Assembly (NCBI GenBank): GCA_963785635.1
Contig: CAWAWB010000007.1
Location: 114,199 to 178,198, forward strand
Origin: an uncultured Phycisphaerales bacterium
GTDB taxonomy: Bacteria > Planctomycetota > Phycisphaerae > SM23-33 > FEN-1343
Reading direction: 5' to 3'
DNA: 64,000 bases
The notes below the pieces were generated by a model that ran no database searches, was not told the DNA's origin, and worked only from the letters and a program-made list of their open reading frames with translations. The translations under genes were made by a program, and so were the position numbers. This document shows positions 1-63,401 of this stretch, in pieces. Every line of letters starts with the position of its first letter. Position 1 is the stretch's first letter.

Positions 1-538
1 GCCAGCGGGGCAACGGCGATCGGATCGGCGTGGAAGGGCAGGTAGAAGTGCCGCACGGCGTTGATGGCCTCGCGGCGGAAGTCCACGTACGGGATGTCGC
101 GGCCGTGATAGTAGGCAAAGACGGCGATGAGCACGGCCAGGCCGATCTGGAAGAGGATTTTCTCCCACATTTCCAGGCCGTCGCGGTTCCTGCCGGGGGT
201 TTTGCGCAGCTTGATCCAGTCGTCAAAGCCCCCCAGGCTGGACAGCCACACCAGCACGACCAGCGACATGCGGACGTAGAAATTGTCCAGCTTGGCGAAC
301 ATGATCGTGGAGATGAAGATGGCCAGGGCGATGAGCGCGCCGCCCATCGTCGGCGTGTCGGATTTGTGCCGCGTGATTTCGTTGAGGGCGGCGTTGTAGA
401 ACTCGGGCCGGTCGCCCACCTTCTTGCGGACGAGGAAGCGGATGAAGCGCGGCGCGAAGATGAAGACGACGAGAAAGCTGAGCACCGCCGCGCCGGCCAT
501 GCGGAGGACCAGTTGTTTTTCGATGAGGAAGGGAATCA
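1..538 (-). CDS. mraY: Phospho-N-acetylmuramoyl-pentapeptide transferase MraY, 5' part (gene runs off the window start)
   Basis: Minus-strand translation from an ATG at 538 with a GGAAGGGA-like RBS. The translation reads MIPFLIEKQL...DTPTMGG..., a typical MraY N-terminus. The gene lies downstream of murE-murF, as expected in a dcw cluster. Confidence 0.85.
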
Positions 539-24839: not shown

Positions 24840-25110
24840 TGGAAAGGTGGCGAAGATGCGCAAGCTTGATTCACCTTGCGCACCTTCAAAAACAGCTCAA
24901 AAACTGGGCGTTTTTGCCCAAGGTGCGCAAGATGCGCAAGGTGCGCAACGCGAGTGGTGACCAAATGACCAATTTGGTCATTTGGTCAGTATTGTGTGGC
25001 GAACTGTTGGCGCCCTTCGGCCGTTTTTTGCACGTAAGTCCTTGTAAATAAAGGACCGGCTCGAAGAGTGCCACCGTCTAAACCCTTGGCACCCTTCCTG
25101 GCGCCCTTCG
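24840..25110. repeat. Composite intergenic repeat (R2 family) containing TTGCGCATCTTC-type units, a perfect 30-bp palindrome and CTTTATTTACAAGGACTTACG units
   Basis: aaggtgcgcaagatgcgcaaggtgcgcaa (24918-24950) and cacgtaagtccttgtaaataaagg (25031-25054) match, in inverted orientation, units at 52541-52700. The perfect palindrome tgaccaaatgaccaatttggtcatttggtca lies at 24959-24989. Confidence 0.55.
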
Positions 25111-31284: not shown

Positions 31285-31470
31285 GCAACACAAAAGAGCA
31301 CAAAGGTCACAAAGAGCACCAAGAACGGCCGGAAAAGGCTTTTAAAAAACTCTTCTGAAGTTCTTTTTGGTGAGCTTGGTGACCTTGGTGCTCTTGGTGA
31401 TTTAATGGTTCTTCTTACGTGTTTGGCTTGGTCCTGGTGGTCTTTGTGTTCCTCTTCACTTTTCATTGAC
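31285..31470. repeat. Hairpin repeat element of the CACAAAG family
   Basis: Left arm is cacaaaagagcacaaaggtcacaaagagcaccaag. The loop has aacggccggaaaagg. The right arm is the inverted ggtgaccttggtgctcttggtga...ggtctttgtgttcctc. Confidence 0.6.
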
Positions 31471-37621: not shown

Positions 37622-37782
37622 AAAAAAATAACCACAAAGGTCACAAAGAAGCACAAAGGGCATAAAGGAAGAAAAGAGTAAAGGCAAGAGAGGGAAAAAA
37701 TTAAGAAATGTTTCCGGCCGTTCTTTGTATTCTTCGTGGTCTTTGTGATCTTTGTGGTTAATTCTCGATAAAAAAAAGGCCG
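37622..37782. repeat. Hairpin repeat element of the CACAAAG family (intact reference copy)
   Basis: Left arm is aaccacaaaggtcacaaagaagcacaaagggcataaagg. The loop has gaagaaaag...ttccggccgttc. The right arm is tttgtattcttcgtggtctttgtgatctttgtggtt. Confidence 0.65.
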
Positions 37783-39915: not shown

Positions 39916-40283
39916 GGCGAAAAACGTTAATCAGTTAATCCGTTAATCGGAAACGGCCGGAACAAGGTCCTTCCCACTTGGGAAATCGTACCGAGGTTTC
40001 GGGGGAGTTGGTAGGGTGTGCAGCTTCGCTGCACACGTTTTTCTTGGCCCTCCTCCGTGGTATGGGTGGCGGTGCCATCTGATATTCTGCCATTGACAGA
40101 GGCTTGAGGCTTGAGGTTCATCAAAGGGTCAAAGCCTCTCTTTGCGCTTGCAGACTTTATTAATTGGAATAAAGTGAGACATGGGTGCCGGGGCTGCAAC
40201 CCCTCTCCTTTGGGAGAGGGTGGCCCCGCGAAGCTTCAGCGATGCGGGGCCAGGTGAGAGTGCAGCCACGCTTGGAGGCCAAT

Positions 40284-44651: not shown

Positions 44652-44787
44652 TTGGTTCATCGGGACGAGAAGTCAATTAGTCATTTAGTCAACTGGTCAA
44701 TTAGCCGGAAAGACGCCCGCTTAGTCCGGCTAACACAAATTGACTAAGCAGCGAGCGGTAGGCGTAGTCGAACCGCGAGAGGACCAA

Positions 44788-55603: not shown

Positions 55604-55725
55604 CTTGCGCTGCTTGCCCATTCTTATTCTCCAGTGGCGAATTTACGCCGAATAACAACTGTGCATTATTGTGCGAGAATGTATGAGTCTACATTTTTTG
55701 GCGGACAGTTCAAGGGAAGTTAACA

Positions 55726-55790
55726 GGTTACAGGGTACAGAGCTCCGGCCGTACCTCTTCCTGTTCTGTACCCTGTAACCTTCAACCTGC
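55726..55790. promoter_or_regulatory. Perfect 16-bp inverted repeat (ggttacagggtacaga N33 tctgtaccctgtaacc) in the GH4/pyrD divergent region
   Basis: Read directly from the sequence. It lies ~40 bp upstream of the pyrD start. It could be an operator or a leader hairpin. Confidence 0.4.
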
Positions 55791-55830
55791 AATTGAATTT
55801 ACGGGCCGCAAATGCTAGTGTGCCCCTTCA

Positions 55831-56766
55831 ATGGTTGATCTTTCGGTCGACATCGCGGGCGTAAAGCTGGCCAATCCCCTGATGACTGCCTCGGGCACGT
55901 GCGGCTACGCGCTGGAATACCAGCCGTACGTGGACCTGCGCGAACTGGGGGCGTTTGTCACCAAGTCCATTACGGTCGGCCCGCGCGCGGGCAACCCGCC
56001 TCACCGCATCGTAGAGACGCGGGCCGGCATGCTCAACGCCATCGGCCTGGCGAACGTGGGGCTGGAAGTCTTCCTGAAGGAAAAAGTATCCGTGCTGGAG
56101 CAGATGGGGCTGCCAGTCTTTGTGAACGTCGCCGGCGTGACCATCGAGGATTACTGCGCGGTCACAGAGGCCCTGGCGGATGTTTCCATCGTGCGCGGCG
56201 TCGAACTCAACATCTCCTGCCCCAATGTCAAGGAAGGCGGCATCACCTTCGGCACGGATGTTCACCAGGTGGAGAAAATCACCAAGGCGGTCAAGGCCCG
56301 CTGCGGCAAGAACATCCTGATCGTAAAACTCTCCCCGAATGTCACGGATATCACCCTAACTGCCCGCGCGGCGGTCGATGCCGGCGCGAATGCCTTAAGC
56401 CTCATCAACACGTTTACGGCCATGGCCATCGATGTGGAAACGCAGCGGCCGATTCTCGCCAATAACACCGGCGGCCTGTCCGGCCCGGCCATTCACCCCA
56501 TCGCCGTGTATATGGTGCACCGCGTATACACGCAGGTGTGCAAGGCGGCGAAGATTCCCATCATCGCCATGGGCGGCATTCAGCACTGGCGCGATGCTGT
56601 CGAGTTTTTGCTCGCCGGGGCAACCGGCCTGGCCGTGGGCACGGCCCTCTTTGTGAACCCGGCGTGCCTGATCGCGATCCGCGATGGGATCGCCGATTAT
56701 TTGAAGCGCCACAATTGCGTGAAGATCAGTGAGATAATCGGGGCGATGAAATTGAACGAGGGATAG
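55831..56766 (+). CDS. pyrD: Dihydroorotate dehydrogenase catalytic subunit PyrD (class 1)
   Basis: MVDLSVDIAGVKLANPLMTASGTCGY...NISCPN...GGI. Confidence 0.9.
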   Translation: MVDLSVDIAGVKLANPLMTASGTCGYALEYQPYVDLRELGAFVTKSITVGPRAGNPPHRIVETRAGMLNAIGLANVGLEVFLKEKVSVLEQMGLPVFVNVAGVTIEDYCAVTEALADVSIVRGVELNISCPNVKEGGITFGTDVHQVEKITKAVKARCGKNILIVKLSPNVTDITLTARAAVDAGANALSLINTFTAMAIDVETQRPILANNTGGLSGPAIHPIAVYMVHRVYTQVCKAAKIPIIAMGGIQHWRDAVEFLLAGATGLAVGTALFVNPACLIAIRDGIADYLKRHNCVKISEIIGAMKLNEG

Positions 56767-56833
56767 GAAAAAGAAAGATAACCACAAAGATCACAAAGAC
56801 CACGAAGGACACAAAGAAGACAAAGGCATTAAA

Positions 56834-58180
56834 GGCCAGGTGACAGCAACCGTGTTACACCTGAGCCGTGATTTTATGGCATTTGCTGAGACGCTTTCAA
56901 CGATCCTTGAACTTATGTTTTGGAACCTGATAACCAATTGTTTTGATCAACGGCTGCCAAGCCGGTTCGCGGCGGCGCAGCTTGAAAAAGCGAACCTGGC
57001 CGTGTGTCAGATCGACCTCCACGCGCACGAGCCGATGGGGCCAATCCACGTCCACGCGCCACGAGTGCCCCAGGCATTCCACGTGGCCGCGCGCATCGCT
57101 GCGCCGCAAAAAGATTACCGTTCCAGCCAGCGGCGCATTAAAGTTGGGCACGAAGGAGGCGGGCATCGGCCGACGAGCCGGCGCCCCGGCGATGCGCTGG
57201 GACGAACGCTGTCGCATCGAGGCGATCATCGCATCGCTTCGGGTCCGAAGAGCTCGGATGTTGCGATGTTTGAACCTGCGCCAGACCAGGCGTTGCCAGC
57301 GGCCGTTGAAAGCTTCGACCTCCGCCTGAAAGCCCGGCTCTCTGGGCGGGGCAAAGATCGGCGTAACCTGCAATTGCAGGCACAGGCGGATCACTCGCCC
57401 GAAGCTGTCGGGCCACTGATGAGCGCCTTGGAAGATGGTGTCGTTGTCGAACTTGGCGTAGTGCGGCCGGCCATGCTCGCGCCAATGCTCCAACAGCGAT
57501 TCGACCACGATTTTCGCGGTGATTTTGTTTTTTGGCCAACTGGCCGGCAGCCCGCCCAGCAGGCTCATCCCGTTGAGCAAGGTAACGTCCTGGCCCCCGC
57601 GAATAACCAGATCGGTGATGGCGTCGAAGCTGTCGATCTCGGCTCGCCCGGCGGCGACCTCGGGCAGATACCAGCCCTTGGGCGGCGGCCGTCGACGCGT
57701 GCGTCGACGCCCATCCAGTACGCCGTTGCGGGACAGGATTCTCCCAATGGTTCTGCAAGAAGGCAGGGCCTGCAGCCCCTGGGCCAGCAACTCGGCATGG
57801 ATGGCTTTGGCGCCATGCTCCCCATGGGCACTGCGCAACTTCAACTGCCGACGGGTGGCCAGAATCCTGCGTTCCAGGGTTCTGGAGGTGCGATTGCGCG
57901 GCCGGCGACAGCCGGAGCGAAGATTGCCCAAATCCGTGCGACCCAAACGCGTGCCCTCGGCACGTTTGCACCAGCGCTGCACCGTCATGTGACTGACGCC
58001 AAAACGCCTGGCCACCCGCCGTGTGGAGCTGCCGCGACGGACAGCCAAAATCATCTGGTAACGGCGTTCGGAAAGAGACGTTTTTCATCACACATGGTCC
58101 TCGGGGAAACTTTTTTCCCGCATGATAGCTGTAACATAGTTGCTGTCACTCAGGTGTAACACGATTGCTGTCACCTGGCC
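56834..58180 (-). mobile_element. IS481-family-like insertion sequence (~1347 bp), apparently intact, with 32-bp terminal inverted repeats and a 7-bp target-site duplication
   Basis: IRL is GGCCAGGTGACAGCAACCGTGTTACACCTGAG. IRR (reverse complement) is GGCCAGGTGACAGCAATCGTGTTACACCTGAG. CATTAAA is directly repeated at 56827-56833 and 58181-58187. There is a single transposase ORF. Confidence 0.8.
56897..58054 (-). CDS. IS481-family-type DDE transposase (N-terminal HTH + rve integrase core)
   Basis: HTH RRFGVSHMTVQRWCKR. DDE candidates are IDSFD, AKFDNDTIFQG (cf. DNGxEF) and AEVEAFNGRWQ (cf. VERFNRTL). Confidence 0.75.
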   Translation of the reverse strand: MILAVRRGSSTRRVARRFGVSHMTVQRWCKRAEGTRLGRTDLGNLRSGCRRPRNRTSRTLERRILATRRQLKLRSAHGEHGAKAIHAELLAQGLQALPSCRTIGRILSRNGVLDGRRRTRRRPPPKGWYLPEVAAGRAEIDSFDAITDLVIRGGQDVTLLNGMSLLGGLPASWPKNKITAKIVVESLLEHWREHGRPHYAKFDNDTIFQGAHQWPDSFGRVIRLCLQLQVTPIFAPPREPGFQAEVEAFNGRWQRLVWRRFKHRNIRALRTRSDAMIASMRQRSSQRIAGAPARRPMPASFVPNFNAPLAGTVIFLRRSDARGHVECLGHSWRVDVDWPHRLVRVEVDLTHGQVRFFKLRRREPAWQPLIKTIGYQVPKHKFKDR

Positions 58181-58289
58181 CATTAAAACTTAATCCGGAA
58201 GAGAATTCTCCGGCCGTTCTTCGTGCTCTTTGTGATCTTGGTGATCTTTGTGGTTGCCTTTTCTTAAGCGTCCAGGCTGGAGGTGCAAC

Positions 58290-59564
58290 ATGCAAAGATT
58301 CATGTTCTTCGCCTGCATTTTCGTCTTAGCTACGACGCTCGAATTTACTGCCGCGCAGACGGCATCCGCGCCGGCGGGCACCAAAATTTATCCCCCCTCT
58401 GCCGTCGATGTCGCGCGAAGGTCCATCGACCTTTCCATCGAGAACACCTCCTTCGATAAGGCGATCTTCACACTGGCAAAGCAGAGCGGCGGTCGCTTCG
58501 CCATCGACTGGAAGAGCCTGGCCGCGGTCGGCATCACCGGCGGCAGTAAGGCGAGCGTTCAGGGCGAAAAGCTGCCCGTGGCCAAGGCGCTGGATATGCT
58601 GCTGGCCTCGCTCAAGGATGCCAAGATCCCGTTGGGCTGGACGATCTACTCCGACACGTTCGTTATCACCACGCAGGCACAGATCCTCCGCTACCAGCAA
58701 TTCTCCGCGGCTATGCGCGAGATGGGCCGCTCACCGGAAGAAGTAACCGCCAAACCCGCGGCCGCAAGCGGAGCCTCGGCGGGACCAGCCACAGCCGCGC
58801 AGGGCGCGAAGGCGCAGCCGATTTCGGCCGCGGCCCTGTGGACCAGGAGGCTCGATATCGATTTCAAGGACACATCCTTTGAGGATGTAGTCGCCTACAT
58901 CAAAGAAAAGACCGGCATGAACGTGGTGGTTAACTGGCGGGCCCTGGAAATGGTGGGCGTGGACAAGACGGCCCGCATCAGCCTGAAGGTGTCCAACATA
59001 ACCATGCCCCAGGCCATGGAACTGATCTTCAGCCAGTTCAACGCGGGCAAGTCGCCGCTGGAGAAGGTGTATTGGGACTACCGCGAGGGCATCCTTTCCA
59101 TCACCACCGGCAGCGTGCTGAATGAGCGGATGGAGAGCCGCGTGTACGATGTGAACGACCTCCTGCTGGTCGTGCCGAATTTCGCCGCGCCGACCATGGG
59201 CGGAGGATCAGCCATTGGGAACCCCGGCGCGGGCGGCCAGAATAGCTGGGGCGGCGGCAGCGGTGGCAATTTCGCCGGCAGCAGCGGCAGCGCGGCTGGC
59301 AGCAGCAACTATAGCACCGGCGGTTATAGCGGTTCTGGTTCCGCGGGTTCTACAATGGGGGCAATGACTCAAAACCAAGGCTTCGGCCAAACGGGCGTCC
59401 AAGGCAGCAGCGATCAGGAGTCTATCCTGATCTCCATCGTGCAGAACATGATCGGCCCGGATTTCTGGGCCCCGGCAGGCAAAGGCACCATCCGCATCTT
59501 TAAGGGGCAGATGATCATTACGCAGAGCAGGCTGGGATTTTTGCTGCTGGACAGAGGCTTTTAG
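58290..59564 (+). CDS. Secreted protein with two STN-like (secretin/TonB N-terminal) domains and a Gly/Ser-rich C-terminal region
   Basis: The start is MQRFMFFACIFVLATTLEFTAAQTASA (signal peptide). There are two ~80-aa repeats (IDLSIENTSFDKAIFTLAKQSGG...; LDIDFKDTSFEDVVAYIKEKTGMNVVVNW...). The ORF-track start at 58248 lies inside the repeat-element arm. Confidence 0.45.
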   Translation: MQRFMFFACIFVLATTLEFTAAQTASAPAGTKIYPPSAVDVARRSIDLSIENTSFDKAIFTLAKQSGGRFAIDWKSLAAVGITGGSKASVQGEKLPVAKALDMLLASLKDAKIPLGWTIYSDTFVITTQAQILRYQQFSAAMREMGRSPEEVTAKPAAASGASAGPATAAQGAKAQPISAAALWTRRLDIDFKDTSFEDVVAYIKEKTGMNVVVNWRALEMVGVDKTARISLKVSNITMPQAMELIFSQFNAGKSPLEKVYWDYREGILSITTGSVLNERMESRVYDVNDLLLVVPNFAAPTMGGGSAIGNPGAGGQNSWGGGSGGNFAGSSGSAAGSSNYSTGGYSGSGSAGSTMGAMTQNQGFGQTGVQGSSDQESILISIVQNMIGPDFWAPAGKGTIRIFKGQMIITQSRLGFLLLDRGF

Positions 59565-59569
59565 ACCAC

Positions 59570-59652
59570 AGGCTGTAGGCTGTAGGTAAAGCCGGAAAAG
59601 AGGTATCTCTTGCTCTTTCCGGTCGTTCCTACGGTCTACAGTCTACAGCCTG
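59570..59652. terminator. Long compound inverted repeat between convergent genes, a probable bidirectional terminator
   Basis: caggctgtaggctgtagg...agccggaaaagag...ctctttccggtc...cctacggtctacagtctacagcctg. Confidence 0.5.
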
Positions 59653-60239: not shown

Positions 60240-60372
60240 TTTCACCTTAATTACAAATTACAAGTGACAAAGTACAAATTACGGGAGACCCGCACATCAA
60301 CGCCCGAACCGAATCCCATCACCCCGTCCCTCTTATAATTTGTAACTTGTACTTTGTAATTTGTAATTTCTC
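60240..60372. repeat. Hairpin repeat element, TACAAAT/GACAAAG variant of the heptamer-phased family
   Basis: Left arm is aattacaaattacaagtgacaaagtacaaattacggg. Right arm is the inverted ttataatttgtaacttgtactttgtaatttgtaatttc. Confidence 0.55.
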
Positions 60373-63183: not shown

Positions 63184-63401
63184 GTTGCCAGACTAGAACT
63201 CAGAGGTGGCAAAGTCAATCGGGCCGCAAAGCGGCCTGGCTTTTTGGCGTTTTGACTATTTGGCTGTTTGGTAAGGGCTCGAAAAATTGTGTGGCTGATT
63301 GACTAAGCCAAAATGGCGGCTGAACTGGTTCACTGTTAAACTGTTTCGCGGGTTCCCGTCGTACCTAACAGTCAAACAGCAAAAGGCCAAATAGCCAAAT
63401 A

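Follow-up and report, generated by a model that had tools for sequence, protein, structure and literature searches.

An intact insertion sequence (IS) lies inside a hairpin-forming repeat element just downstream of pyrD in the window, that is, in the whole stretch of 64,000 nucleotides analyzed here. An earlier note had described it as an IS481-like element placed exactly in the loop of the hairpin and had compared it with IS that target REP or other palindromic units. The locus raises two questions: to which group of IS the element belongs, and whether its position reflects recognition of a hairpin loop or of some other property of the target. Our analysis favours the following answer, which we consider likely: the element is a complete, probably active single-gene DDE IS of an uncurated clade related to IS481, carried by a Planctomycetota host, that targets NNTNANN heptamers and tandem-repeat hairpins.

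Organization of the insertion sequence

The IS is 1347 bp long and carries a transposase gene on the minus strand (Table 1). Its termini, GGCCAGG...CCTGGCC, are part of terminal inverted repeats (TIRs) that match at 31 of 32 positions (97% complementary), with a sole C/T mismatch at position 17. The TIR pattern occurs in the window at these two places only, with 0 occurrences expected. Perfect 7-bp target site duplications (TSDs) abut both IS ends. The inverted termini with one mismatch and the 7-bp duplication described earlier were both confirmed, and every checkable sequence feature of the element was found where it had been placed.

An end motif of about 20 nt is present in one copy at the gene-distal end and in two copies at the gene-proximal end, the latter forming a direct repeat (D1, 58127-58149 versus 58152-58174, 83% identical). 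The motif in the gene-distal TIR also pairs with the inner of these repeats, 58127-58149 (inverted repeat I4). Duplicated end motifs are present in relatives of the IS too.

A single ORF fills the element, which has no second or helper gene and no programmed frameshift. A 439-aa ORF on the plus strand (56840-58159) was rejected as a gene, since it only mirrors the transposase ORF on the opposite strand of GC-rich DNA. The opinion that a stop-free ORF is rare in this window was wrong: long uninterrupted ORFs number in the dozens, and the longest reaches 759 aa.

Table 1. Features of the IS, of the hairpin element that it interrupts and of the encoded transposase (window positions, or residues where indicated).
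Feature	Position	Strand	Description
Hairpin left arm	56775..56826	+	Tandem CACAAAGnn, period 9; aligns to the left arm of 37622-37782
TSD copy 1	56827..56833	.	CATTAAA; TTTAATG in the direction of the transposase gene; fits NNTNANN
IS with GG...CC termini	56834..58180	-	Delimited by TIRs; gap-free 1347-bp counterpart with the same ends at locus L094
Gene-distal TIR, 32 nt	56834..56865	+	Inverted repeat I2; one copy of the ~20-nt GTGACAGCAAnnGTGTTACA motif
Transposase gene, 385 aa	56897..58054	-	ATG start, no internal stop
HTH region	residues ~1-110		N-terminal; Pfam HTH_23, E 8.6e-07
RNase H-like DDE core (predicted)	residues ~140-260		Candidate catalytic D144, D203, E247
Beta-barrel	residues 312-374		C-terminal
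Promoter-like site (predicted)	58122..58149	-	GTGACA, 16 nt, TATCAT; 10/12; from a consensus scan alone; overlaps the inner end repeat
Subterminal direct repeat of TIR motif	58127..58149	+	Gene-proximal end only; putative second transposase-binding site
Gene-proximal TIR, 32 nt	58149..58180	+	From inverted-repeat and TIR-pattern searches
TSD copy 2	58181..58187	.	CATTAAA
Rest of central spacer	58188..58216	+	From the fold of the reconstructed site
Inner stem-loop	58195-58213		CCGGAAGAGAATTCTCCGG; within the central spacer
Common motif	58209-58217		TCCGGCCGT; mostly within the central spacer
Hairpin right arm	58217..58262	+	TCTTTGTGA-type units, period 9
Uninterrupted paralogue of the hairpin element	37622..37782	+	Empty-site reference; hairpin of -53.8 kcal/mol

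The transposase

The length of the protein, its HTH region (Pfam) and the absence of internal stops agree with the earlier description, whereas the rve-type core claimed with them was not detected by the Pfam models: rve, rve_2 and rve_3 gave no match to the window transposase at E<1. Among 39 relatives, two matched rve_3 (E about 0.04), and a profile search of PDB sequences returned spurious HTH matches only. Evidence for the core comes solely from the predicted fold and from a weak match to the IS481 model of NCBIfam.

In the AlphaFold2 model (pLDDT 86.3) the order beta1-3/alpha/beta4/alpha/beta5/alpha is found between residues 140 and 258. The candidate catalytic triad was placed by position in this model, with D144 in beta1, D203 after beta4 and E247 in helix 244-258. 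These three residues are invariant in 39 aligned sequences, and the window protein keeps all family-invariant residues. A Foldseek search with the model matched IstA (E 6e-15), TnsB (5e-11) and retroviral integrases (PFV integrase, 2e-08), with a probability of 1.00. As modelled, the transposase is a protein of the integrase-type DDE fold with an RNase H-like catalytic core.

Relationship to known IS families

IS of the IS481 family have TGT...ACA termini and generate TSDs of 2-15 bp, mostly of 6 bp (PMC10045372). The best family model for the window transposase was NCBIfam NF033577 (IS481), with 73 bits (E 2.9e-20) against a curated cut-off of 224 that was not reached; the match spans residues 4-274 and model positions 9-260 of 284. 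The same model was the best one for 39 of 39 aligned relatives (best E 4.6e-25). In both groups a single ORF, with neither frameshift nor helper gene, encodes a protein with an HTH at its N-terminus and an integrase-type DDE core behind it. The TSDs in the window and at 30 loci are 7 bp long, which is inside the range of the family but differs from its modal length of 6 bp (PMC10045372). The termini differ as well: the window IS ends in GG...CC and lacks the TGT...ACA signature, its relatives have ends of the type GG(C/A/G)n(A/G)AG..., and no Pfam rve match was obtained here. The designation "IS481-like" therefore stands as far as the best family model goes, and fails on the score and on the ends.

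The best structural match of the predicted transposase was IstA of IS21 (PDB 8q4d, 8b4h). Both transposases combine multi-domain HTH regions, an RNase H-like core and a beta-barrel, and both types of IS have repeated transposase-binding motifs at their ends, which in the window IS are putative. Sequence identity is only 14%, however, the NCBIfam IS21 model covers only the N-terminal HTH region of the window protein, and the window IS lacks an istB-like ATPase helper gene.

We assign the IS to a distinct and uncurated clade, a distant relative of IS481, for which more than 2,300 homologues were found, mostly on contigs about one IS long; there are 203 clusters at 50% identity (E<=1e-30). Their hosts are Planctomycetota, Gemmatimonadota, Chloroflexota, Rokubacteria, Proteobacteria and other groups, and in NCBI and JGI records the members are labelled "hypothetical" or "transposase-like". 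With the single protein as query a genome scan yielded no relative, while an alignment-based scan did recover relatives; a scan of metagenomes yielded three loci. A tblastn search of 72,556 plasmids with the transposase found no relative.

A second copy and the mobility of the element

A second copy of the IS, with 94.4% nucleotide identity over all 1347 bp and no indel, was identified at a different locus (L094). Its terminal ~40 nt are identical to those of the window copy, including the GGCC...GGCC ends, and its TSD is CTTGAGG. Since the same ends are bordered there by another heptamer, CATTAAA is target DNA and the IS is mobile; the possibility, raised earlier as a check, that CATTAAA is a part of the IS termini is thereby excluded.

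The ratio dN/dS between the two copies is 0.21. Together with the near-perfect TIRs, the retention of the invariant residues and the presence of this copy elsewhere, it indicates that the window copy is intact and probably active, in agreement with the earlier, more guarded reading of an intact and possibly active element.

One copy of the IS is present in the window and the exact window protein is recorded on a single contig, so the site preference of this particular IS rests on two sites: one in a hairpin spacer and one, at L094, adjoining a two-unit heptamer array and a terminator.

Reconstruction of the interrupted hairpin element

The element's left arm begins 9 nt past the stop codon of pyrD (56764-56766), and the right arm ends 28 nt ahead of the ATG of the next gene (58291). 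The inverted arms (I1, 56774-56818 and 58217-58261, 45 nt) are 82% complementary, and both are tandem arrays of period 9: Tandem Repeats Finder (TRF) reported 4.8 copies of CACAAAGnn in the left arm (56783-56825) and 3.9 copies in the right arm (58218-58252).

When the IS and one CATTAAA were deleted in silico, a 134-nt element was obtained that folds into one long hairpin of -59.5 kcal/mol (z about -9 versus shuffled sequences). This rebuilt site aligns arm for arm with the uninterrupted element at 37622-37782, and CATTAAA sits in its apical, mostly unpaired spacer. Alignment and refolding bear out the proposals that the flanks rebuild an element like this paralogue and that the IS interrupts such a hairpin, with the 7-bp TSD in the central spacer. 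No orthologous empty site was found among the nearest pyrD homologues, which are at most 83% identical and differ in downstream synteny.

Hairpin elements of the window have a GC content of 44%, compared with 60% for the window as a whole. Repeat periods of 8 and 9 occur among them and their arm sequences vary, while a central CCGG-containing motif is common to them. The motif TCCGGCCGT was found six times in the window against 0.9 expected, with four of the six occurrences in or beside hairpin elements. A scan of the whole window against Rfam matched no family.

Target choice across the clade

TSDs were compared at 30 loci with perfect 7-bp duplications, which gave the consensus NNTNANN, with T3 at 30/30 and A5 at 29/30. 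Automatic end calling failed or was off by at least one base in about a third of loci, where end motifs are imperfect or duplicated or flanking arms outscore the TIRs; these loci were inspected manually or omitted from the TSD logo. Short-read metagenome contigs are also sometimes chimeric across IS copies. Outside one long-read Gemmatimonadales genome, T3 was present at 12 of 12 sites and A5 at 11 of 12, and the pattern is shared by the TSDs GTTAAAT, TTTAAAT, ACTTAGA and TATTAAC. It is also kept in the swapped TSD pairs CCTAATC/CGTAAGG and GGTGAGA/GGTTACC. One relative (L020) has a 6-bp TSD without T3/A5.

Copies of the clade are strongly enriched in intergenic tandem-repeat hairpin elements, and in heptamer arrays they occupy a single register. 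A lag-7 array was located no more than 50 nt from an IS end at 17 of 22 sites in the Gemmatimonadales genome, compared with 18 of 1232 controls (p=9e-25), and at 7 of 38 remaining loci, compared with 10 of 1715 controls (p=2e-08); most of the weight of these statistics comes from the one genome, and any apparent intergenic preference is inflated by purifying selection against genic insertions. In the Gemmatimonadales genome all TSDs are in one phase, CGTRAGA or its complement TCTYACG. Independent cases of insertion into arrays or hairpins were found in Planctomycetaceae (L015, L058), Schlesneria (L024), Steroidobacteraceae (L016), Chloroflexota (L074) and Phycisphaerae (L001/L009), and among close relatives of the window IS (L093, L095, L099). 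Relatives lie mostly in hairpin arms, within heptamer arrays and in either orientation; their register in the repeat unit is fixed, but their distance from the loop varies and either arm may be used. The window element has period-9 arms and an insertion in the spacer, so the in-register rule for arrays does not apply to it literally.

An account without any intrinsic preference for hairpins would hold that an AT-rich heptamer centred on T-N-A suffices, that selection purges genic insertions, and that surviving copies pile up in AT-rich, dispensable intergenic repeats. The near-universal T3/A5 beside variable other positions is consistent with it, as are the low GC content of the hairpin elements and the copies that lie outside arrays in some genomes (most copies of a deltaproteobacterial genome, and L018, L019, L077 and L078). 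Against it, the hairpin elements contain only 3.3% of the TNA sites and 7% of the WTWAW sites of the window. Moreover, 77% of the Gemmatimonadales sites fall in heptamer arrays that make up about 1.5% of the flanking DNA, far above the expectation from roughly 10% intergenic DNA, and several independent insertions into one array at L015 argue for a real attraction. We regard this account as unlikely.

Alternatively, the transposase might recognize the structure of an extruded hairpin or cruciform and integrate in its loop, as in the case of IS1397 and ISKpn1. The window copy, in the largely unpaired apex of a stable hairpin, would fit such a mechanism, for which the insertion of IS3-family elements into REP loops provides a precedent (PMC1525189). 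As a general rule it does not hold: eight relatives in complete hairpins (L034, L035, L038, L041, L049, L071, L072 and L058) are located at least two units from the loop, in either arm and in either orientation, and relatives at large lie mostly in the arms, at NNTNANN. Several copies lack any hairpin context, and the L094 copy is outside a loop of the type of element found in the window. Structure-specific loop targeting is, in our judgement, distinctly improbable.

The relation between IS and array might also be reversed, each round of insertion and excision at the same heptamer leaving an extra 7-bp copy, so that the IS makes the arrays. The identity of TSD length and array period (7) agrees with this idea, as does the restriction of all array insertions to the single register that makes the unit NNTNANN, and heptamer repeats are over-represented in bacteria, with no origin given for them (PMC4692102). 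The arms of the window element and its paralogue have a period of 9, though, and other elements one of 8; some heptamers lack TNA, such as the window unit GGGTACA and the Xanthomonas unit GGGAATC (PMC4692102). An inverted second arm cannot come from direct duplications, and tandem arrays are abundant in a window with one IS copy. Folding of reconstructions with 0-5 TSD copies does not discriminate, as the energy drops with every added unit. In integrase-type relatives such as IS3 the donor site is believed to stay intact (copy-out-paste-in). Little credence can be given to this origin of the arrays; there is a slightly better, still slim chance that the clade may seed or lengthen heptamer arrays in the NNTNANN register, by one unit per cycle of insertion and excision or of abortive integration.

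That the arms are themselves mobile-element DNA (extended inverted repeats or a MITE-like derivative), as their symmetry around the IS might suggest, is scarcely credible: they share no sequence with the IS termini, are separated from them by the 7-bp direct duplication, differ between elements, are missing at the L094 copy and are present in the IS-free paralogue at 37622-37782.

Proposed mode of insertion

Targeting of NNTNANN heptamers and tandem-repeat hairpins by the clade, the reading we prefer, would proceed as follows. The transposase would bind the repeated end motifs and assemble a synaptic complex, in which two target phosphates would be attacked with a 7-bp stagger around the symmetric T-N-A core. 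Tandem-repeat hairpins would be favoured by offering many acceptable heptamers in phase, in what would be the sole AT-rich and expendable portion of these GC-rich genomes, and possibly also by a DNA shape conducive to insertion. At the window locus, immediately downstream of pyrD, the IS entered the AT-rich central-spacer heptamer TTTAATG and split the hairpin.

Comparison with repeat-targeting IS and similar repeats

IS that target REP or other palindromic units include IS1397, ISKpn1 and ISPsy8 of the IS3 family, ISPpu9/10, ISPa11 and IS621 (IS110), and ISRm22; the survey of such elements names five families, i.e. IS3, IS110, IS4, IS256 and IS5 (PMC1525189). Like these IS, copies of the clade lie preferentially in a dispersed intergenic palindromic repeat, with a reproducible position relative to the repeat (PMC1525189), and the window copy resembles IS1397 in its location in an apical spacer. 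The target, in contrast, is a hairpin whose arms are tandem short repeats that vary between elements, and what is reproducible is the register (NNTNANN), neither a single nucleotide position nor the loop. The TSD is 7 bp long here, compared with 2-6 bp, and the clade is outside the five families surveyed (PMC1525189). The comparison with REP-targeting IS made in the earlier note is apt at the level of the family, although the loop position does not generalize.

Intergenic tandem heptamer arrays have been described as inverted pairs of (GGGAATC)n in Xanthomonas and as heptamer repeats in Nostoc (PMC4692102). Like the present targets, they often come as two arrays that converge and could fold into stem-loops, in most cases immediately 3′ of a gene; their unit sequences are different and lack TNA, and the passages of that report covered here link no IS to them (PMC4692102). 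The window elements differ from them in their periods of 8 and 9 and in their common central motif. No IS family tied to heptamer arrays was found in the largely open-access literature covered by our search. Palindrome-targeting IS are known, while in-register insertion into hairpins of tandem repeats by a clade related to IS481 appears to be a new variation.

Significance

The event in the window is in itself ordinary: an intact IS in a dispensable intergenic repeat. The pattern of the clade is less so, as it is widespread, escapes the IS family models, produces 7-bp NNTNANN duplications and inserts in one register. With this clade, target choice of the REP type covers a sixth transposase lineage and, in phased tandem arrays instead of a fixed palindrome, a new kind of target. 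The end motif GGnnAAGTGnCAG and the TSD rule are now available to annotators for elements labelled "hypothetical". The clade also gives a way into the poorly understood hairpins of tandem repeats, which its IS copies flag and interrupt and between which they bring about inversions. Should the targeting reside in the transposase itself, this would be a simple one-protein system for a DDE enzyme that reads periodic DNA. Were array seeding true, the clade would account for a part of the heptamer repeats that occur in unexplained excess between bacterial genes.

Structure of the insertion sequence and its target

Inspection of positions 56500-58500 reproduced almost base for base the earlier note's description of an insertion sequence (IS), which lies downstream of pyrD. 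Its 32-nt terminal inverted repeats, GGCCAGGTGACAGCAA(C/T)CGTGTTACACCTGAG, match at 31 of 32 positions according to an inverted-repeat search, and the pattern does not occur elsewhere in the window (0 expected). The reported 7-bp target-site duplication (TSD) and 385-aa transposase were both found. The accompanying statement that a stop-free ORF is rare in this window was wrong, as the window is packed with long ORFs, the longest of them 759 aa. A sigma-70-like promoter match (consensus match only) overlaps the direct copy of the end motif. A 439-aa ORF (56840-58159, plus strand) runs antisense across the entire transposase gene and is most likely a shadow ORF of GC-rich DNA.

Features of the insertion sequence and of the hairpin repeat elements in the window
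Feature	Position	Length	Remarks
Insertion sequence	56834-58180	1347 bp	bounded by 32-nt inverted repeats
TSD (CATTAAA)	56827-56833; 58181-58187	7 bp	identical heptamers abutting both IS ends
Transposase ORF	56897-58054 (minus strand)	385 aa	ATG start; single long ORF inside the IS
Direct copy of end motif	58127-58149; 58152-58174		gene-proximal end; direct-repeat search
Arms of interrupted hairpin element	56774-56818; 58217-58261	45 nt	inverted, 82% complementary; outside the duplicated heptamers
Hairpin elements	24915-24990; 31293-31400; 37622-37782; 39926-39961; 44671-44760; 55692-55814; 59570-59648; 60249-60368; 63237-63401

The interrupted hairpin element begins 9 nt past the pyrD stop codon, and the insertion lies approximately 110 nt ahead of the next gene's start. 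Both arms of the element are period-9 tandem arrays of CACAAAGnn units. Removal of the IS and one CATTAAA rebuilds a 134-nt element (42% GC) with a computed fold of a single long hairpin (-59.5 kcal/mol), in which CATTAAA lies within the mostly unpaired apical spacer. This element aligns arm for arm with its uninterrupted paralogue at 37622-37782. Fold and alignment agree with the proposed restoration of an intact element and confirm that the IS simply entered a hairpin repeat at its centre; taken alone, this is an ordinary event.

About ten such elements, with arms composed of inverted tandem arrays of short units, are present in the window. The units repeat with a period of 7, 8 or 9 and differ in sequence from one element to another. 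Several elements share the central motif CCGGAAnAG...TTCCGG(C/T)CGT; TCCGGCCGT occurs 6 times versus 0.9 expected. A conserved centre is thereby paired with variable, self-complementary arms. Homologues of pyrD assign the host to Planctomycetota, the best named ones (~75% identity) belonging to Phycisphaerae and Planctomycetota MAGs. In two Planctomycetota relatives with 80-83% identical pyrD genes, L101 (2285-2450) and L104 (1603-1630), tandem-repeat hairpins also lie beside pyrD, that of L101 being upstream of the gene and folding at -112 kcal/mol. Their units, AAATYCC and CTTTTAGA, are entirely unlike those of the window element at 55692-55814, which suggests either fast arm turnover or independent acquisitions at the same place.

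Transposase family and predicted fold

Among Pfam models, only the N-terminal HTH_23 matched the transposase (E 8.6e-07), with no rve domain at E<1. The best NCBIfam model was IS481 (E 2.9e-20, residues 4-274), although the score of 73 bits compares with a curated cut-off of 224; the IS21, IS630 and IS3 models matched the HTH region only. All 39 aligned relatives (39/39) behaved in the same way. The terminal signature of the IS481 family is TGT...ACA (PMC10045372), whereas this IS ends in GG...CC. The cut-off was missed widely and the termini differ; the label "IS481-like" holds only loosely, as a best-model assignment, and family membership is not established. A tblastn search of 72,556 plasmids revealed nothing similar to the transposase.

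An AlphaFold2 model built on the alignment of relatives (pLDDT 86.3) predicts HTH domains, then a core of the order beta1-beta2-beta3-alpha-beta4-alpha-beta5-alpha spanning residues 140-258, and a beta-barrel at the C-terminus. Its Foldseek matches in the PDB were IS21 IstA (6e-15), TnsB from type V-K CRISPR-associated transposons (5e-11) and, at 2e-08 or weaker, retroviral integrases. Residues D144, D203 and E247 are acidic, invariant across the alignment and placed where a catalytic triad is expected, which makes them candidate catalytic residues. The rve-type DDE core claimed earlier alongside the HTH is thus upheld at the level of predicted fold, but without a Pfam rve match. Sequence models place the protein only loosely; the predicted fold is clearer.

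Mobility of the element

The same IS was found at another locus, in the JGI metagenome contig L094, with 94.4% identity over all 1347 bp and no indel. Both copies end in GGCC...GGCC and agree fully over the initial 42 and the final 45 nt, and the L094 copy is flanked by a perfect 7-bp TSD, CTTGAGG. Since identical ends adjoin a different TSD, CATTAAA is target DNA, which rules out the earlier note's alternative that it forms part of the IS termini. Codon differences between the copies (39 synonymous, 26 not; dN/dS 0.21) show purifying selection on the transposase, and the IS has moved recently.

Target-site duplications across the clade

Alignment-based scanning of one genome per species yielded 80 loci with 48-61% identical transposases, several from long-read MAGs with many copies; closer relatives were added by exact look-ups. 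After end calling, 30 distinct loci had perfect 7-bp duplications. Read in gene direction, T stood at position 3 in 30/30 and A at position 5 in 29/30; with the Gemmatimonadales genome (a long-read genome with many copies of one relative) set aside, the remaining 12 sites gave 12/12 and 11/12. The hand-resolved TSDs GTTAAAT, TTTAAAT, ACTTAGA, TATTAAC and CTTGAGG (L094) follow the same pattern, as does the window TSD in gene orientation, TTTAATG. So do two copy pairs with swapped heptamers: CCTAATC/CGTAAGG (L027 and L030, CAWDMI010000002.1, ~40 kb apart) and GGTGAGA/GGTTACC (L036 and L048, CBDFJJ010000013.1, ~47 kb apart). Such flank exchange is the signature of recombination between two oppositely oriented IS copies that inverted the DNA between them. 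The clade thus makes 7-bp duplications at NNTNANN, whose symmetric core suits a dimeric DDE enzyme.

An exception is L020, a Tepidisphaeraceae relative (~1343-2727) with a 6-bp TSD, ACCGTC, lacking T3 and A5; the end of another clade member lies ~110 nt downstream (~2835-2860). In L099 and L100 (~130-151, 1495-1520) inverted arms (GGTTAGA GGTGAGA GGTTAGA / TCTAACC TCTCACC TCTCACC) directly adjoin both sides of a 71%-identical relative, which shows no direct duplication; either two copies in opposite arms recombined or the short-read assembly is chimeric. In the Logan short-read contigs L006, L007 and L010, compared with L001 and L003, the left flank of one insertion site is fused to the right-hand flank of a different one. 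Flanks of a multi-copy relative in such contigs cannot be paired blindly.

Array context and target choice

Hairpin elements make up 1.7% of the pre-insertion window DNA and hold 3.3% of its TNA sites and 7% of its WTWAW sites, so the location is not accounted for by sequence alone. The single event, with p about 0.03-0.07, is only suggestive, and the argument is carried by the family data, in which insertion sites are clearly non-random. In the Gemmatimonadales genome almost every copy lies within a CGTGAGA/CGTAAGA heptamer array or its complement, the TSD being exactly one array unit in an always identical phase. Paired as arms, these arrays form hairpin elements whose centres are GC-rich, and either arm can hold the IS. 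A lag-7 array (a 21-nt stretch with >=71% self-match, no more than 50 nt from an IS end) accompanied 17/22 Gemmatimonadales sites versus 18/1232 control positions (p=9e-25), and 7/38 versus 10/1715 for all other loci (p=2e-08). Independent cases come from Planctomycetaceae (L015, L058), Schlesneria (L024), Steroidobacteraceae (L016), Chloroflexota (L074, L084), Phycisphaerae (L001/L009) and closer relatives of the window IS (L093, L095, L099). In L015 (2769-2840) one heptamer array has been struck twice: the first copy's right end is followed 17 bp later by the left end, GGCCAAGTGTCAGTAATACGAGG..., of a second IS. No array was found near the insertions in L018, L019, L077, L078 or most copies in a deltaproteobacterial genome. 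A different ~1.33-kb element with inverted ends, CACCTAGCAGGTTGCGGAAAAA..., is nested within the Gemmatimonadales IS left end at two loci (L047 and L063, both 49-1375), in opposite orientations.

We consider it probable that the transposase has an intrinsic regional preference for phased tandem-repeat DNA, with further bias arising because insertions there do no harm. One main rival, pure survivorship, would explain the insertion pattern without such a preference. The other is structure-specific recognition of the loop by the transposase, in keeping with the palindrome targeting first suggested. The association with hairpin repeats is real at clade level, but not as loop targeting: insertions as a rule lie in the arms, at NNTNANN, in unit register and in either orientation. 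In the window, the IS happened to use the AT-rich spacer heptamer of an element with period-9 arms. That the clade itself creates the heptamer arrays is attractive, as TSD length equals array period and insertions keep a fixed register, but is contradicted by window arms of period 8 and 9, heptamer units without TNA, an ever-present inverted partner arm that direct duplications cannot yield, and arrays that are abundant though only one IS copy is present.

Relation to known systems and extent of the clade

Homing to repetitive extragenic palindromes is well established for members of the IS3, IS110, IS4, IS256 and IS5 families, and the loops are where IS1397 and ISKpn1 insert (PMC1525189). A catalogue from Xanthomonas lists convergent heptamer-array pairs with stem-loop potential, and many bacteria show an over-representation of heptamer tandem repeats, the available text of that study giving no origin for them (PMC4692102). 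No link between any IS family and heptamer-array hairpins was found in the literature searched, whose scope excluded ISfinder and much subscription literature, where the clade may already bear a name.

The clade is large, with more than 2,300 homologues found, mostly on contigs of ~1.3-1.5 kb, as collapsed multi-copy IS elements look. Clustering at 50% identity gives 203 clusters with E<=1e-30; public annotations read "hypothetical" or "transposase-like". The clade is marked by IS481-related transposases, GG...CC termini, duplications of 7 bp at NNTNANN and a habit of entering tandem-repeat hairpins in register. While no categorical surprise, this finding is solid and generalisable, and of use for annotation and for the study of target choice.
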